From: a virus
Lineage: Duplodnaviria; Heunggongvirae; Uroviricota; Caudoviricetes
Length of the DNA: 64,000 bases
Reading direction: 5' to 3' (one strand)
Virus record (IMG/VR): IMGVR_UViG_3300032167_005013
Under the pieces are notes generated by a model, which searched no databases, was not told the DNA's origin, and was given only the letters and a program-made list of their open reading frames with translations. The position numbers and the translations under genes are program-made. Shown here piece after piece: positions 14,147 through 58,604 of the stretch (position 1 is the first letter of the stretch; every line of letters starts with the position of its first letter).

Positions 14147-15346
14147 TTAGAAGGCATTGCCTCGGTCATCCACAGTTAGGTTCTCCATAAGCGTATATTC
14201 GGTGCTACGGACACCTATTATTCTTTCTCCCTCTAATAAGATATTCATCGCTGCATTTATATCCCTGTCATGATGTTCGCCACATTGTGGACATGTCCAT
14301 TCCCTGTCACTTAACTTCAAATCATGTTTCTTATATCCACAAACTGAACATGTTTTACTGCTTGGATAGAATCTATCAACAAATATTACTTGTTTTCCGT
14401 TATTGAATGCTTTATCAACAAGTATTGATTTAAATCTATAAAATCCTACTTCTTGTATCGCTTTCGCTAACTTATGATTCTTTAACATTCCACTAACATT
14501 TAAGTCTTCCATGAAGATTACATCATAATATATAAGCAATTCATTTACTACACTATGAATATAATTCTCTTTCTGATTGTTTAACTTCTCAAATGCCTTT
14601 GCAAGTTTGATTCTTGCTTTATTTCTGTTATTAGAACCTTTTTGTTTCTTTGATAATTGATGTTGGAGTTTTGCTATCTTCTGTTCTTGTAATTTATAGA
14701 AATGTTTATTTTCAAACACTTCACCATCACTTGTAATTACAAAATCTTTAACTCCTAAGTCAATACCAACATGTTCATCAGTTAATTTGAATTTAACAAC
14801 TTCTTCATTTGGTAACTCAATTAAGATAGATAAGAAGAAATTACCACTCTTGGTTTTCGATAAGGTAGCACTTCTTATTCCATCACGATATTGTCTGAGT
14901 CTGTTGTGATTCAAATCAGAACATCTGAAACGAATATCTTTTAAAGGTTGTGTCAACGTTATTTTTCTTGTTTCAAATGTATTCTTCTTTGAAATCGCTT
15001 CAAGTGGGAATAACGCTGACTGTTTATCTTTTTTACTTTTGAATTTTGGGAAACCATTATGTTGTTTAAAGAACTTCTCATAAGCAGATAGCATCTGCCT
15101 TATTGACTGTTTCATTATCTTTGTGTTTTCTTCTTTCAACCATGAGTATTGTTCATCCTTCAATAGTTCATTATGAAAATACTTTGATAAATCAGTTAAA
15201 CCTAATGATTTCTTATTTTCAGTATATTCTTGTTGTTTACGAGCAAGTGTTTGATTATAAACAAAACGGTAACACCCCAATACTTTATTCAGTTTCAGTT
15301 CTTGCTCCTTATTTGGATATAATCTTATTTTAATTGCTCTTAACAT
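14147..15346 (-). CDS. tnpB: RNA-guided endonuclease TnpB
   Basis: KIRLYPN HTH, GIDLGVKD RuvC-I, MEDLNV RuvC-II, CSVCG/CPQCG zinc finger, DRDINAA RuvC-III. Confidence 0.95.
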   Translation of the reverse strand: MLRAIKIRLYPNKEQELKLNKVLGCYRFVYNQTLARKQQEYTENKKSLGLTDLSKYFHNELLKDEQYSWLKEENTKIMKQSIRQMLSAYEKFFKQHNGFPKFKSKKDKQSALFPLEAISKKNTFETRKITLTQPLKDIRFRCSDLNHNRLRQYRDGIRSATLSKTKSGNFFLSILIELPNEEVVKFKLTDEHVGIDLGVKDFVITSDGEVFENKHFYKLQEQKIAKLQHQLSKKQKGSNNRNKARIKLAKAFEKLNNQKENYIHSVVNELLIYYDVIFMEDLNVSGMLKNHKLAKAIQEVGFYRFKSILVDKAFNNGKQVIFVDRFYPSSKTCSVCGYKKHDLKLSDREWTCPQCGEHHDRDINAAMNILLEGERIIGVRSTEYTLMENLTVDDRGNAF

Positions 15347-17592: not shown

Positions 17593-18351
17593 TTAAAACT
17601 TGAATTTTCTTAACTGCGATTTATGGACGAAAACACGTTCAACCCTAACATTCTGTGCAACACCCATCTTAGTTGTGCCCATACCATCTTTTCTTGCTTT
17701 CTCCCATATACAGACAAAATCAGAAGGTGCTGAATATTCCGACACCATTATCTTATGCCCCTTATCACACATTCCACGGCACCACTCCCAAAACAGTTCA
17801 TTATCAAACCCGTTCTTATTGTATCCTTTAGTTGATGCATAAGGCGGGTCACAATAGATAAAAGAATTCTTAGGGTATTCCAATGTTCTATAATCACCAT
17901 GCACAAATGTACAACTATCAAGGCCAATGAAACTGTTTATATGTTTCAAAAGTCCTCGTCGTGCCTCAGCAATATGGTCCTCATTTCTGTTAGGATTAAA
18001 ATGTGCATATCCATTCCACCATCCACATCCGTTTGAACAGGCATTTCCCACGTAACCAAGGAGGGCTGAATCATATTTCCCACTATTGGTTAAACAATCT
18101 TCGCGCATTGCCTTGTATTCGGTTTCAGTAACTCTCTCAGGTATTTTAAATGTATTGTTTTGAATTGCTTTCCACATGGCAATTACATGTGGATTAATAT
18201 CCATTGCAATTTTATTGTCGTGGTTTATTACCGCAAATGAATTCATTCCACCGCCAAACGGCTCAATATAAGCCTGACACTCATCAAGATTTCTCTCAAT
18301 GAGTGCTTTTAAGTTTTTCATCAAACCTCTTTTACTTCCTTGATATCTCAT
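17593..18351 (-). CDS. DNA adenine methyltransferase (D12/Dam-like)
   Basis: RYQGSK, YIEPFGGG, YCDPPY, VSEY. Confidence 0.88.
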   Translation of the reverse strand: MRYQGSKRGLMKNLKALIERNLDECQAYIEPFGGGMNSFAVINHDNKIAMDINPHVIAMWKAIQNNTFKIPERVTETEYKAMREDCLTNSGKYDSALLGYVGNACSNGCGWWNGYAHFNPNRNEDHIAEARRGLLKHINSFIGLDSCTFVHGDYRTLEYPKNSFIYCDPPYASTKGYNKNGFDNELFWEWCRGMCDKGHKIMVSEYSAPSDFVCIWEKARKDGMGTTKMGVAQNVRVERVFVHKSQLRKFKF

Positions 18352-19145
18352 TAAATCTGTGGGATTATATTGCGGTCCTTAAAAAACGTTCTGTTTGTTT
18401 CATCATTAAGCGGAACAGCCGGGAATACCTCAGGGTTATGTCTTGTATATACATCACCATTATTGTTGGTAAATTGGGTTTCAACCCTATAGATAAATCT
18501 ACCGAACTTCCATCTATCAGGATACTTATCCCAATCCTCACCGTTATATTCCTTAAGTTTTTCAATCTGTTGGTCAACAAGCAATCCCATAAGTTCCTTG
18601 TGAGGAAAAAATGTCTGTGCTGTCTGCGCCTTAGAATTCCTGATACAGTCATTCTGTCTATACAACAACCATGCAACTACATCATTATAAGTTGGAACAT
18701 TCCACGCCTTGCAATCAAATTCATAAAGGCCAATCTTCTCAGCAATGACCTGAGAACCTTCAATACTTGTCCTCAATTCATACTGCATCATCAGATTATT
18801 AAACTTTGCAGTTGCCATAGATGCAACAATAGACAATATCTTGGTAAGCCTATATCCAAAAAATGAGTCTGTTGTTGGCGTTTCGAAATCAGTAATAACA
18901 AGAGTGATTTCATCTGACTGTGTATATGCAAATTTACAACCCTGAACATTCTTTACCAAGTATTTTGCTGTTTCATCCATCATATCAATGAAATCATCAT
19001 CAAAAGGCTTCGCAAACTTCTTCTTGATTTTGGAAGAAAAACTTCTTCCATCAAGCATTACCAACACATAAGAGTTAGGCATAAGCCTATAATCCGTAAG
19101 ACTACGAAAATACTCACATTTCTCTTTTAAACTATCAAACTGCAT
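18351..19145 (-). CDS. tRNA(His) guanylyltransferase Thg1-like protein
   Basis: LDGRSFS, KPFD, YTQSDEI, FDCKAW, YRQNDCIRNS. Confidence 0.92.
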   Translation of the reverse strand: MQFDSLKEKCEYFRSLTDYRLMPNSYVLVMLDGRSFSSKIKKKFAKPFDDDFIDMMDETAKYLVKNVQGCKFAYTQSDEITLVITDFETPTTDSFFGYRLTKILSIVASMATAKFNNLMMQYELRTSIEGSQVIAEKIGLYEFDCKAWNVPTYNDVVAWLLYRQNDCIRNSKAQTAQTFFPHKELMGLLVDQQIEKLKEYNGEDWDKYPDRWKFGRFIYRVETQFTNNNGDVYTRHNPEVFPAVPLNDETNRTFFKDRNIIPQI

Positions 19146-23971: not shown

Positions 23972-24136
23972 TGAGCCATGAGGGGCTCGAACCCTCATCC
24001 CTTGCCCCCGGCAAGTGTTTTTTAATAGTGTTTCAGAAACGGCAAAACTCCATACCGAATTTCCGGACATTTCAATATTTGAAAACCATTCCCTCAGCAT
24101 ATGCTGATACCACCAACCAATTAAATCCAATGGCTC
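23972..24136 (-). ncRNA. 165-nt tRNA-like RNA with intact acceptor and T arms and a large internal insert
   Basis: GAGCCAT/ATGGCTC-A acceptor; GAGGG-TTCGAGC-CCCTC T arm; no canonical D or anticodon loop. Confidence 0.7.
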
Positions 24137-24148
24137 GAAGTTTTTTCG

Positions 24149-24229
24149 TGCGGATGAAGGGACTCGAACCCCCACGCCTTTCGGCAACAGGTTTTGAATC
24201 TGTCGTGGCTACCATTACACCACATCCGC
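24149..24229 (-). tRNA. tRNA-Leu(CAA), CCA not encoded
   Basis: GCGGATG/CATCCGC-A acceptor, TTCAAAA anticodon loop, long variable arm GCCGAAAGGC, TTCGAGT T loop. Confidence 0.9.
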
Positions 24230-24424
24230 ATAAAACTCCGATTAAAGCACCGCTCGGAGCAACACGTCCAACCAACGATTTGGCCAAGGGCTTGACTTAC
24301 ATGCACATAGATATGATGAACAGGGACTATAAGGGATTCTTACCATATAGTTTGAACATCCTATGACAAAGCCTTGTCGTTTCGTTTCCACCTTAACCGC
24401 GAATCCGGTGGACTAACTTTAGTC

Positions 24425-24748
24425 TTAAATATATGCCTCCCAATAGGTAACAACAAAATCAAGTGTGATTGAATCAACTTCCCCTTTTTCTGTTGTTATT
24501 CTTATTTTGAACGGACCGCAATGGGAATAGAAAGTATCTCCTTTATAATCTCCGAGTCTTCCTAACAACCCATATATCATATTTCTTGCGTCTTCTCTTA
24601 AATAGGTTTCATCAGGAATGCCCCTATTTTCAAGGTCACCTCCCATATAAACCTCCCAATTAAGAAGTTGCATTGTCTTCGCAACTTTATTGAAATCAAA
24701 ATTATCCATGATTTCATTAACAAGTTGCTGTGTTTTACTTATTTCCAT
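24425..24748 (-). CDS. hypothetical phage protein inside the ncRNA unit
   Basis: IMDNFDFNKVAKTMQLLNW motif. Confidence 0.75.
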   Translation of the reverse strand: MEISKTQQLVNEIMDNFDFNKVAKTMQLLNWEVYMGGDLENRGIPDETYLREDARNMIYGLLGRLGDYKGDTFYSHCGPFKIRITTEKGEVDSITLDFVVTYWEAYI

Positions 24749-24762
24749 ATTTTTTAAAATTG

Positions 24763-24880
24763 ATGTGATGGAGGGATTCGAACCCCCGGTCCCGGTTTAG
24801 CAAACAGTCTCAAACATTGCTGTTCATTTCCATAAGCAGGAAACTAAATTTACGGAGCATTACCACTTTGCTACATCACA
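24763..24880 (-). ncRNA. 118-nt tRNA-like RNA with a branched, enlarged anticodon arm
   Basis: TGTGATG/CATCACA acceptor, GCA-AAGTGGTAA-TGC D arm, GGGGG-TTCGAAT-CCCTC T arm; two hairpins replace the anticodon loop. Confidence 0.75.
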
Positions 24881-24893
24881 TGCCATAATTGAT

Positions 24894-25170
24894 AAAGGAT
24901 ATATGTGCTGTTACGCCAAAGCATTCTCGTATGTCCTACCGAAAATCGGGTTCATAACCCCGCCATACTGCCAACTGATGAGGAATAACGGTGGACTTTT
25001 ACCGAACCTCAAAAGGCAGACCAAACTCGAAGTTTGTCATGTTGTGGAATATTCCCTCACGGCACATCACCTACGGCTTTTCATCTCACGCAAGCATATC
25101 GCACTCACAGGGCACTTTCTGCGCACTCCTTAGAAAATGGCTGCTTCCAAGCCAATTTTTATATCCTTTT
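24894..25170 (-). ncRNA. structured RNA mimicking 23S rRNA H43/H44 (uL11-binding GTPase-associated centre) with ~200-nt insert
   Basis: TTGGCTTGGAAGCAGCCAT...TAAGGAG at the 5' end and GCGTAACAGCACA at the 3' end, closed by a 10-bp AAAGGATATA/TATATCCTTT helix. Confidence 0.75.
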
Positions 25171-45273: not shown

Positions 45274-46434
45274 TTAATTCTGTTTTACAACCCAAAGGCT
45301 ATGATATTCATTATGTTCAGGAAATTCAAAATTCTGAACCATATTGTAAAATACATTCTCAGGTATCTGTCCCTTACGTCTCTTGATATTATCCTTAAAC
45401 GTAGGTGCCTCAATATACCAATAGTTCCAACGGATTTTCTTTCCTCCTAAGAAACCTTTCAATTCCTTTCTTCTCTTGGCAGATAGATTAATGTTATTCA
45501 ATATAACAGGACGATTATTTTCTATTGCCTCAAGAAGCCTTTCATTAAAAATCTTGGTAACTTTATTCTCCTGTTTGTTTGTTCCAACAATCTTTTCATC
45601 TGCAGAACAATAACCCAATTCCACCCTGATATCATCTCTTGACAACACCACAGGGTTATCCATCTTATGAATGAGTGTATTCTCAATGAAAGTATTCTTG
45701 CCTGACCCAGGAAGCCCAATCATCACATTGACCTCAACGGCATCGTCAGCAAATTTAGGAAGACTACCACTGCAACCGTAAGGACTTTCACCAATCTTGA
45801 ACATATTCAGCCATGAAATGTTGTTCAATTCTTCACCGATGATTAGGAATCTTTCAAGAATCTTCTTGTCTTCCTCTTTAGTAGAACAACTTGGTTTCTG
45901 AATTGCACCCTCAAGGTCACACATCTTCAGCCTGTATATATCATAATAAGGGAGAGTTTTTGTAATTTTATCAACAACATCCCTTGGCTTCTTGGCTTTT
46001 TCGAAGAAGAGAGGCTCCATATGCCACTTAACCATATGAACAATATACTCACGGTCATAAAGAGGCCAATCCCACAGCATTTCACGTGCAAGTTTTGAAC
46101 CTACATTTTCATGACCATAAGAGTGCCAATTACCATCTTTTTCTCCCTTGAAAGTCGTCTTAGGCTTTCCAACATCATGGAAAAGTGCTGAGAGCATAAA
46201 AAGTCTCTTCTCGTGAAGGTTCTTCTCAGTATCTTCTTCCATAAATCCCAAAGCATGCTTGCACACAAGACGGGTATGTTCCAATGTATTTCCCTCACTA
46301 TGCCAACGAGGATTCTGCATAGTATTCTCCATATCTCTAAAATGTGGAAGTTTCAAAATGAAATCCCAATTCAAGTTCAAAGTATTATCAATAAAAAAAT
46401 CTTCAAGTACCATATTATTCTTTTCCAAATACAT
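45274..46434 (-). CDS. HD-domain phosphohydrolase fused to a P-loop polynucleotide kinase
   Basis: QNPRWHSEG..LEHT, LFHDVGK, GHE; GLPGSGK, SRDDIR. Confidence 0.85.
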   Translation of the reverse strand: MYLEKNNMVLEDFFIDNTLNLNWDFILKLPHFRDMENTMQNPRWHSEGNTLEHTRLVCKHALGFMEEDTEKNLHEKRLFMLSALFHDVGKPKTTFKGEKDGNWHSYGHENVGSKLAREMLWDWPLYDREYIVHMVKWHMEPLFFEKAKKPRDVVDKITKTLPYYDIYRLKMCDLEGAIQKPSCSTKEEDKKILERFLIIGEELNNISWLNMFKIGESPYGCSGSLPKFADDAVEVNVMIGLPGSGKNTFIENTLIHKMDNPVVLSRDDIRVELGYCSADEKIVGTNKQENKVTKIFNERLLEAIENNRPVILNNINLSAKRRKELKGFLGGKKIRWNYWYIEAPTFKDNIKRRKGQIPENVFYNMVQNFEFPEHNEYHSLWVVKQN

Positions 46435-57257: not shown

Positions 57258-57291
57258 TTTGTTTGTTTGGCATGATATTTGTATATTTGCA
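57258..57291 (+). promoter_or_regulatory. housekeeping promoter with nested sigma54-like box
   Basis: TTTG-tttgtttggcatgatatttg-TATATTTGC. Confidence 0.7.
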
Positions 57292-57314
57292 TCGTAGATT
57301 TTAAAGTAAAAAAT

Positions 57315-58604
57315 ATGCTATATACTGATTTCTTAAAACACAAAGTTTTTACGATTCTCCATGACGTCGCAAAGGAACTTAACGTTCACGCATATGTTGT
57401 TGGGGGATATGTTAGAGATTGTTTTCTTGGTATAGAAAACAAAGATATTGACATTGTTGTTGAAGGTTCAGGAATTGAATTTTCAGCGGCTTTTGCGGAA
57501 AAAGTTAATGAAAAACATCATTTCTATGAAAATTATGGAACGGCAATGGTCCGTTATAAAGGAATTGAAGTCGAATTCGTTGGAGCGAGAAAAGAAATGT
57601 ATGAGAGGGGGTCACGAAATCCGATTGTTGAAGACGGCACGCTTCTTGATGACCTTCTAAGAAGAGATTTTACCATTAATGCAATGGCTTTATCTCTCAA
57701 TGATGATTTCGGCGCCCTTGTTGACCCTTTTGACGGGAAAGCCGACCTTGAAAAAAGAATTATAAGAACTCCAGGTGGTATCCCTAATGTTACATTTTCT
57801 GATGACCCCCTCAGAATATACAGGGGTATACGTTTTGTTGCAAAACTTTCTAAAGAAGGTGAATTATTCAAAATTGATGACAATACATGGGAGGGAATGA
57901 AAAACAATACAAGTAGAATCTACATTCTTACTCAGGAACGCATCACTGAAGAGATTGATAAGATTCTGAGTTATGATAACTCAGCCCTCGGTTTGGAATT
58001 GATTAATCTTCTTGGTATTTGGGATTTAACGTTTGAATATGACGGGCGTACAATGGTAAAAATTGGGATGGTTGCTAAAATCGATGAAGTTCTTGATAAA
58101 TATCAAAACAAAAAACTCCTAAAATGGGCAGTATTACTCGGTAAAGGCGCATTTACTCTTGAAAAACTTAAGGACCGTGTTCAAGGAATGAGATTACCTA
58201 ATTCCACTTACAATTTCATTGAAAAGGTTGTGACAAATAGAACTGTATTCACAGATAAGCAACCGCTTAGTGTTTTCAGAAAATTTGTTGCTGAAAATGG
58301 TCTTGCAATATATGATATATATAATTATTGGTTTTGTCATGAGCTTTATTATGCAGATGAAACTAATGTACCTTTAATTTTTGAAAAATATAAAAGAATT
58401 AGATTCTTGTTTAGTTCATTAACGCAATTTATTGATTTTAAACTTCCGTTAAACGGAAATGTAATTAGTGAATATATCGGGGTTCCACCGGGTCCACAAC
58501 TTGGTTTGATTCTTAATAGTATTAAAGAAGGCATTTTCGATGGTAGAATCGAAAATACTGTGGATGGCGTTTATTGGTGGTTGTTTAACACATTTAAAAA
58601 CTAA
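57315..58604 (+). CDS. cca: CCA-adding tRNA nucleotidyltransferase (class II)
   Basis: VGGYVRD, DIDIVV, ARKEMY..GSRNP, DLLRRDFTINAMA, FSDDPLR, ERITEE. Confidence 0.9.
   Translation: MLYTDFLKHKVFTILHDVAKELNVHAYVVGGYVRDCFLGIENKDIDIVVEGSGIEFSAAFAEKVNEKHHFYENYGTAMVRYKGIEVEFVGARKEMYERGSRNPIVEDGTLLDDLLRRDFTINAMALSLNDDFGALVDPFDGKADLEKRIIRTPGGIPNVTFSDDPLRIYRGIRFVAKLSKEGELFKIDDNTWEGMKNNTSRIYILTQERITEEIDKILSYDNSALGLELINLLGIWDLTFEYDGRTMVKIGMVAKIDEVLDKYQNKKLLKWAVLLGKGAFTLEKLKDRVQGMRLPNSTYNFIEKVVTNRTVFTDKQPLSVFRKFVAENGLAIYDIYNYWFCHELYYADETNVPLIFEKYKRIRFLFSSLTQFIDFKLPLNGNVISEYIGVPPGPQLGLILNSIKEGIFDGRIENTVDGVYWWLFNTFKN

Follow-up and report, generated by a model that had tools for sequence, protein, structure and literature searches.

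The window analysed here is a 64,000-nucleotide (nt) stretch of DNA from a virus of the Caudoviricetes (IMG/VR record IMGVR_UViG_3300032167_005013), and our subject is a 118-nt tRNA-like gene within it whose anticodon arm is interrupted by a 47-nt insert. The window is phage DNA. Its GC content is 34%, and its genes include tail-fibre repeats with an endosialidase chaperone, Thg1, a CCA-adding enzyme, NAPRTase, NADAR, Nudix, ThyX and a glucosaminidase. The tRNA-like gene lies on the minus strand. The Rfam tRNA model (RF00005) matches it over the full length of the model, positions 1–71, scoring 41.3 bits where the gathering score is 29. The acceptor stem has 7 bp, UGUGAUG/CAUCACA, and is followed by U8 and A9. 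The D arm reads GCA(A)-AGUGGUA-(A)UGC and includes G18 and G19; the T arm reads GGGGG-UUCGAAU-CCCUC. The variable region is only 4 nt long (GACC), the discriminator is U73, and the CCA end is not encoded. An earlier reading, made from the letters of this DNA only (the sequence-only reading), had called a tRNA-like gene here with a canonical acceptor, D arm (including GG) and T arm, and the sequence and the Rfam alignment confirm both the gene and these parts of it; the T loop is canonical as well. The anticodon region occupies 58 nt where the Rfam model expects 11.

Removal of 47 nt after G29 brings this region back to canonical form. The deletion leaves CCGGU-UUGCUAA-ACCGG, that is, a 5-bp stem without mismatches that closes a 7-nt loop of U32, U33, the anticodon GCU, A37 and A38. 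It is the only 5-bp solution over all registers, and as the sole deletion to yield such a stem with a canonical loop it sets the boundary of exon 1. ARAGORN in intron mode calls a tRNA(GCU) with an intron at 29/30; in plain bacterial mode it does not call the tRNA. The sequence-only reading held that a 7-nt loop with U33 cannot be recovered by any clean splice, and it had proposed an intron-mode search as a check on itself; the deletion and the ARAGORN call both contradict it. An equally good solution arises in 0.7% of whole-region shuffles, and in 8–13% if the shuffles leave the CCG/CGG stem top in place. At a single locus, then, a restorable arm is suggestive but not decisive. AGY codons make up 29% of the serine codons of the window. 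No further copies of the 47-nt insert were found in the rest of the window.

The insert consists, in order, of the leader UAAAUUUA, a hairpin with a 6-bp stem and a 7-nt loop, the dinucleotide GA, the motif ACAGCAA and the tail UGUUUGAGACU. The sequence-only reading had drawn the anticodon arm as a stem that forks into two hairpins. That fold can be drawn at −22.7 kcal/mol, near the optimum of −26.4 kcal/mol obtained with the tRNA core enforced; the exon–exon anticodon arm with the insert bulged out comes to −21.8 kcal/mol. Of the helices drawn, only hairpin 1 (GUUUCC/GGAAAU) is supported by covariation in homologues; neither the UUUAG/CUAAA stem nor the AACAG/CUGUU hairpin is supported in relatives, which keep ACAGCAA as sequence. 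The extra nucleotides had also been described as well paired, and hence under selection. Relative to shuffled sequence, the stability of the insert has a z score of −0.9, that of the arm region 0.0 and that of the whole 118-nt RNA −0.57. Because none of them is more stable than its shuffles, good pairing is not evidence by itself. The further idea that the fold hides the anticodon fares no better, as pairing between the leader and positions 35–39 in relatives sums to 34 against 34.7 expected, the level of chance. Two other pairings were tried and rejected. For a helix that would close the insert by pairing the A-rich leader with the U-rich tail, runs of 3.88 were observed, against 3.87 in cross-paired sequences, and a GCAA-tetraloop hairpin, GAACA-GCAA-UGUUU, can be drawn in the window insert and is absent from relatives.

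Table 1. The tRNA-like gene, its parts, and other window features referred to in the text (positions are those of the 64,000-nt window).
Feature	Position	Strand	Basis
Whole tRNA-like gene, 118 nt	24763..24880	minus	Rfam RF00005, ARAGORN intron mode
Exon 1: acceptor 5' strand, D arm, U26, C27 C28 G29	24853..24880	minus	sequence reading
Insert, 47 nt, between tRNA positions 29 and 30	24806..24852	minus	deletion scan, family architecture
Module hairpin GUUUCC-UGCUUAU-GGAAAU, 6 bp, 7-nt loop	24826..24844	minus	homologous helix covaries in relatives
Single-stranded motif ACAGCAA (family consensus C-N-G-C-A-A/C)	24817..24823	minus	conserved in alignments
Exon 2: G30 U31, UUGCUAA loop, ACCGG, GACC, T arm, acceptor 3' strand, U73	24763..24805	minus	
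Anticodon GCU within exon 2	24799-24801	minus	
Candidate end-healing enzyme, HD phosphohydrolase and P-loop polynucleotide kinase fusion	45274..46434	minus	Pfam HD and AAA_33
Thg1-like 3'-5' polymerase	18351-19145		
CCA-adding enzyme	57279-58604		
ORF107, just downstream of the tRNA-like gene	24425-24748		
Structured RNA just upstream of the tRNA-like gene	24894-25170	minus	
Second tRNA-like gene, 165 nt	23972-24136	minus	ARAGORN, relaxed threshold only
TnpB/IS605 OrfB-type gene	14147-15346		helix-turn-helix, OrfB and Cas12f-like TNB domains

Similar inserts were sought with a pattern scan of IMG/VR for the common D arm followed by a T loop 57–87 nt further on. This spacing exceeds that of any normal tRNA, and the scan therefore picks out genes that bear inserts. 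It returned more than 116 loci, mostly tRNA-like genes with 35–60-nt inserts of several recurring kinds. In a subset of them the insert, about 40–50 nt long, contains what we name here the hairpin-CNGCAA module: an A-rich leader of 5–10 nt, a hairpin of 6–9 bp, a spacer of 1–5 nt, the motif C-N-G-C-A-A/C and a tail of 7–25 nt. From all sources together, some 50 tRNA-like genes were seen to have the module, in many unrelated phages of IMG/VR, in metagenome-assembled genomes from gut and rumen and in cultured phages. The hairpin usually reads ...CUU-GNNA-AAG.... In alignments A2 and A3 the C, G and C of the motif are invariant and the A is nearly so; among 34 entries, CAGCAA occurs 21 times, CCGCAA six times, CUGCAA and CAGCAC three times each and CGGCAA once. 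A covariance model, R1, was built from 13 members with the window locus excluded, and it finds 30 matches in 100 loci and 46 in 30 family loci. A T-loop motif lies no more than 95 nt downstream in 45 of these 46 matches, against a background of 20%, and a D arm and a T arm flank every one of the 26 matches inspected.

A second pattern demanded the D arm, CAGCAA and the T loop, with no requirement for a hairpin. It recovered 10 viral contigs and 14 GTDB contigs, the latter from rumen or gut metagenome-assembled genomes (MAGs) and one isolate scaffold, and the hairpin is present in 16 of 18 cases. The helix covaries: 95.2% of alignment cells are paired, and compensatory changes occur at all seven pairs (106 cells with double changes). 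A first set gave 89%. None of 500 shuffles scored as high, and slid controls were 38–50% paired. Fitting of the alignment to the model inflates these figures; the margin is nonetheless large. Several phages and MAG contigs have three to five module-bearing genes, five being the most on any contig, and these genes are often in tandem. Such arrays, of three to five genes with a period of about 115–165 nt, occur in the GTDB MAG contigs L186 (3068–3560), L188 (6424–7172) and L190 (1834–2810). One and the same module-bearing gene is found on an 87-kb viral contig of IMG/VR (L178) and on a 368-kb scaffold of Oscillospiraceae bacterium 50-58 (L187, JBCLQE010000001.1). That scaffold is apparently from a cultured isolate, and the gene, which is without a canonical anticodon loop, may be prophage-borne. 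No description of the hairpin-CNGCAA module was found in the literature, where only reports of "enigmatic" introns turned up; the family is apparently undescribed.

The window insert very probably belongs to this family. It sits in a tRNA anticodon arm, has the hairpin, spacer and motif in that order, begins at the junction CCG^UAAAU, is 47 nt long and leaves a restorable arm. R1 gives it 14.7 bits (E 2.1, rank 2 over 128 kb), and R2, a model likewise made without the window locus, gives it 15.9 bits (E 0.63, tied for rank 1 over 128 kb); these values of E, 0.63–2.1, are not significant window-wide, and they become about 2e-4 to 1e-3 if the search space is taken as the 47-nt insert only. Our estimate of membership, made from the sequence, combines the model scores with four features of the insert: its length, its position, its G^UA junction and an exact, correctly spaced ACAGCAA. 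Among relatives G-N-N-A tetraloops prevail, and the 7-nt loop of the window hairpin makes this a divergent member. The sequence-only reading had named an unconserved insert in homologues as grounds for giving up its own proposal; the opposite was found, as the insert is conserved in the family.

Closer relatives of the locus were also sought. Exact 22–24-mers from the exons and the insert found nothing homologous in IMG/VR. ORF107, the open reading frame (ORF) just downstream, has homologues with 58–91% identity (P0001–P0006) in Logan/ENA assemblies. When ORF107 and the NAPRTase neighbours were searched for in IMG/VR, metagenomes, GTDB and GenBank phages, only relatives of 30–45% identity, with no matching tRNA, were found. 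In three IMG/VR records (L001–L003) there is a tRNA with the acceptor and T-arm sequence of the window gene; its anticodon arm is that of an Ile (GAU) tRNA, and it has a class-II-like D arm without a long variable arm.

Within the family, a tRNA frame could be defined for 36 distinct members, and an arm was scored as strictly canonical if it had 5 bp, U33 and R37. One deletion restores such an arm in 17 of the 36, against 2.6 expected from shuffling of the interior; if one mismatch is tolerated, the counts are 24 and 11.5. The sites of insertion are mostly 29/30 or 28/29, with one at 26/27 and a few in the loop. The exon nearly always ends in G and the insert usually starts with UA: beside the window junction given above, examples are ACG^UAUUA, GCG^UACUU and ACG^UAAAAA. 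The restored anticodons are chiefly GUU, UUU, GAU, UAU, CAU and UGU. Phage tRNA sets usually cover A/U-rich codons, as these anticodons do.

BLAST with a module-bearing array extends the family to cultured phages, through matches in GenBank isolates. In Synechococcus phage BUCT-ZZ01 (ON615601.1), whose host is S. elongatus PCC 7942, three tRNA genes form an array: an intact tRNA(CAU), a tRNA(CAU) with the module at 28/29, and a tRNA-Asn(GUU) whose module, at 29/30, is nearly identical. The genes lie at about 110.9–111.5 kb (locus L196, 440–710), and perfect arms and an encoded CCA are found in both interrupted tRNAs. An annotated 110-nt tRNA of Vibrio phage D482 (tRNA_0023) and 18 sister isolates is a tRNA-Asn(GUU) interrupted at 28/29 by a 41-nt module.

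The presence of the same module in two tRNA genes of BUCT-ZZ01 points to mobility. Those near-identical copies would also suit a selfish mini-element that acts at the DNA level and inactivates tRNA genes, the window gene then being a pseudogene and the clean arms a sign of recent insertion. Decayed anticodon regions in some members agree with such an element, as does an insertion nearly always after G with no target duplication. We regard it as improbable all the same. The hairpin undergoes compensatory changes over diverged phages, and the motif stays invariant while loops and tails drift. The tRNA scaffolds are intact, with compensatory changes in the T arm and an encoded CCA. The module has neither terminal inverted repeats nor the second end hairpin of IS200/IS605-type elements, and it persists in many lineages and arrays.

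Other insert families share the anticodon arms of phage tRNAs. A second family, in nine IMG/VR records (L085, L098, L100, L108, L128, L133, L144, L156 and L170), has the consensus AUUAC-stem-GC..GCA-stem-GUUCCUA and a length of about 39–44 nt. A third, in six records (L071, L072, L082, L094, L121 and L126), ends in ...GGUUAUC(U). Its member in L082 occupies site 28/29 of the same tRNA-Asn arm in which L154 and Vibrio phage D482 carry hairpin-CNGCAA modules. The third family may be Y-RNA-like, since the L082 phage encodes a Ro60/TROVE protein.

The reading that we favour is that the hairpin-CNGCAA module is an intron-like insert, cut out by proteins, with the exons then rejoined. On the sequence evidence, the probability that this is so, and that the window insert is actually spliced, is evenly poised. 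That mobile tRNA introns of phages include a new class for which the module stands, one that enters the 5' side of the anticodon stem behind a G and is excised by an endonuclease or a minimal ribozyme and resealed by phage repair enzymes of the Pnkp and Rnl1 types, is a more tentative proposal that we would not yet call probable. In the reading that we favour, the module would spread as a mobile element. In the transcript, a hypothetical endonuclease would cut both junctions, with the tRNA body and/or the hairpin-CNGCAA module as its guide. A Pnkp-type enzyme, for which the HD-kinase fusion of the window is the candidate, would heal the ends, and a T4 Rnl1-type ligase would seal the exons. The product would be a 71-nt tRNA, to be finished by the phage CCA-adding enzyme.

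Candidates for some of these enzymes are encoded by the phages. The HD-kinase is assigned to the PHROG polynucleotide kinase group, and its sequence matches Pnkp1 (4xrp) and T4 polynucleotide kinase (1ly1) in the PDB; we infer a link between it and the processing of the insert. With a Thg1-like 3'-5' polymerase and a CCA-adding enzyme, it forms the RNA-repair toolkit of the window. The window ORFs scanned included no recognisable RNA ligase. An Rnl1-type ligase is encoded by seven of eight near-complete IMG/VR carriers of the module and by both cultured phages, that is, by nine of the ten complete carrier genomes. RtcB is present in one of 12 carriers, and an association with it was rejected.

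Several points weigh against excision. Rnl1 is no commoner in carriers than in phages with other tRNA inserts, of which five of eight have it; its presence is therefore a compatibility argument only. The family evidence comes from members in other phages, with no orthologue of the window gene among them, and the window insert itself has an atypical hairpin loop and the weak window-wide score given above. About half of the members (19 of 36) do not have a strictly canonical arm. The decoding identity of the restored product is also at odds with splicing. In bacteria, the long variable arm of tRNA-Ser (class II) is the main identity element for seryl-tRNA synthetase (SerRS). The window tRNA does not have this arm, and bacterial SerRS should not charge a restored GCU tRNA with a 4-nt variable region and U73. 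Other members with clean arms join Tyr (GUA) or Leu (CAA) anticodons to class I bodies.

That the class I body, with U73, bears a serine anticodon is a point in favour of an alternative in which the insert is retained. The gene would then yield a stable, non-decoding RNA of tRNA shape, whose scaffold gives processing, a CCA end and stability. Acting as a decoy or adaptor, this RNA would present its hairpin-CNGCAA module to some partner, such as a host nuclease, a defence protein or an RNA-binding factor. We consider this alternative possible rather than probable. A lineage of three loci in related phages (L077_8955, L147_921 and L157_6164) agrees with it: these loci have no canonical anticodon loop, an indel and free variation occurring there, and they keep the module intact, while their T arm and acceptor stem change by compensation. 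So do the restriction of strictly canonical arms to 17 of 36 members, the intact Asn and Tyr tRNAs that L154 has beside interrupted ones of the same anticodons, and the tandem arrays of four to five module-bearing genes. For L154, recent duplication from intact paralogues was considered and rejected, as no near-identical exons were found. To our knowledge, moreover, bacteria have no splicing machinery for a 47-nt insert, which also counts for retention.

Other findings speak against retention. Canonical arms, with U33, R37 and a split 5-bp stem, occur six to seven times more often than chance allows and would be needless in a non-decoding RNA, and the restored anticodons are typical of phage tRNA sets. 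In BUCT-ZZ01 the module is in two of the three tRNAs of the array, both with perfect arms and CCA ends. Ro60/TROVE is present in none of 17 carrier phage records and there is no YrlA match at the window locus, nor is masking of the anticodon by the leader conserved. Class I bodies with Ser, Tyr or Leu anticodons, the lineage without an anticodon loop and the intact paralogues of L154 nevertheless keep retention close, and we judge a non-decoding RNA nearly as likely as splicing. The sequence-only reading had proposed a non-decoding tRNA mimic. Its argument is weakened, because it was built in part on the false premise that no splice is available, but the class I GCU body and the lineage without an anticodon loop keep the proposal alive. 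The family may also be mixed, with spliced tRNAs alongside derivatives that have turned into tRNA-scaffolded RNAs.

Comparison with known systems places the module apart from each of them. Group I introns are about 200 nt or longer, have a P1–P9 ribozyme core, occupy a site in the anticodon loop and are mobile. The module resembles them in interrupting tRNA genes of bacteria and phages, and in its inferred mobility. A group I intron was rejected at the window locus: the insert is 47 nt long and lies in the stem, and Rfam finds no Intron_gpI match, the only matches at E <= 1 being tRNA and one weak small RNA match. The sequence-only reading had likewise judged the insert too short for a group I intron. 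A very small self-cleaving or self-splicing RNA, with the hairpin and CNGCAA in its catalytic core and with Rnl1 ligase or nothing else needed, would account for an invariant C-GCA beside a covarying helix, a pattern like the conservation of small ribozymes, and for a 5' junction that is a G^U step. It is nonetheless highly improbable, as 47 nt is far under the size of any known self-splicing intron, no Rfam ribozyme family matches at E <= 1, no conserved second or closing helix was found, and the distance from module to junction varies over 5–10 nt on the 5' side and 7–25 nt on the 3' side.

Archaeal non-canonical introns of the bulge-helix-bulge (BHB) type, at sites such as 29/30, are cut by the EndA splicing endonuclease. 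Like them, the window insert is short, lies in the stem of the anticodon arm and separates exons that restore a perfect stem, and we propose a dependence on proteins for it as well. Unlike them, it is carried by phages of bacteria, and the BHB has no counterpart of CNGCAA. A relaxed BHB can be formed at the window junctions with 10 of 12 pairs, which 60 of 20,000 shuffles equal (p about 0.003). Six relatives form only 5–7 of 12 pairs, a level matched by 15–61% of their site pairs. Because these relatives are unremarkable, the fit at the window locus is taken as chance and a BHB intron was rejected. No EndA-type splicing endonuclease turned up among the approximately 60 window ORFs in general scans.

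Short inserts of another kind are known from large phages. The "enigmatic" tRNA introns of Lak megaphages are 79–114 nt long, lie at 37/38 and contain a tRNA-like T arm (Devoto et al. 2019, PMC6784885, Table S6), and "enigmatic" phage tRNA introns were reported again for jumbo phages (PMC13037316). The present inserts share with the Lak introns that they are short and not of group I, interrupt tRNAs of large phages, are conserved between genomes and are seen when tRNA finders are run in intron mode. The window insert differs in its length of 47 nt, its stem site at 29/30, the absence of a T-arm-like part and the presence of hairpin-CNGCAA; by size, site and T arm (compared with Table S6, PMC6784885) it is not a Lak-type intron.

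Among RNAs that keep a tRNA shape without decoding, YrlA (RF02553) is a tRNA-like Y RNA of bacteria and phages, circularly permuted and ending in a Ro-binding stem. Like YrlA, the window RNA has a tRNA-shaped scaffold in which a module takes the place of the anticodon arm, and the protein-binding module of YrlA offers a model for the retained-insert alternative. Identity with YrlA or a Y RNA was rejected, as RF02553 has no match at the window locus (E <= 1) and the gene ends at its acceptor stem. Weak YrlA matches in the MAG arrays bridge adjacent tRNAs, running from a T arm to the D arm that follows, and it is these two arms that drive them. TROVE is present in two phages with another insert type, and in none of the 17 carrier records. 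Transfer-messenger RNA was also rejected: ARAGORN finds none, and tag frames started at GCA end inconsistently in relatives.

In T4, a tRNA cut in the anticodon loop by PrrC is healed by Pnkp and sealed by Rnl1. The heal-and-seal enzymes of this repair have their likes here, HD-Pnk in the window and Rnl1 in the carriers. T4 repair mends one break and removes nothing, whereas the window tRNA would need two precise cuts.

Other features of the window lie near the tRNA-like gene. Just upstream of it, in the same orientation, is a structured RNA with the ends ...GGCUUGGAAGCAGCCA... and ...GGCGUAACAGCAC..., about 200 nt apart, which resemble helices 43/44 of 23S rRNA (the uL11/GTPase-associated centre). 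An Rfam scan of 24000–25100 gave no match to this RNA in the part covered. The second tRNA-like gene, of 165 nt, has a good acceptor stem and T arm, a CUUGCC-GGG-GGCAAG hairpin and about 80–110 extra nt in the D/anticodon region, with a terminator-like hairpin after the gene. ARAGORN calls it only at a relaxed threshold, and scans with R1 and R2 did not find the hairpin-CNGCAA module in it. Further away, the TnpB-type gene lies inside a sugar-nucleotide cluster.

In the accepted view, only self-splicing group I introns and, rarely, group II introns interrupt the tRNA genes of bacteria and their phages. Short "enigmatic" introns in giant phages have been noted since 2019 without being assigned to a class. 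The hairpin-CNGCAA family can be defined by its covarying helix, its invariant motif, its preferred site G^UA at positions 28–30 and its signs of mobility, and it is present in cultured phages with Synechococcus elongatus PCC 7942 and Vibrio hosts. Because tRNA finders in bacterial mode miss the module-bearing genes, the tRNA inventories of phages are undercounted. If the insert is spliced, this would be the first tRNA splicing route in bacterial systems that is not of group I, and the pathway may have recruited RNA repair enzymes of the T4 type. If instead the RNA is non-decoding, the family would constitute a new class of tRNA-scaffolded non-coding RNAs.

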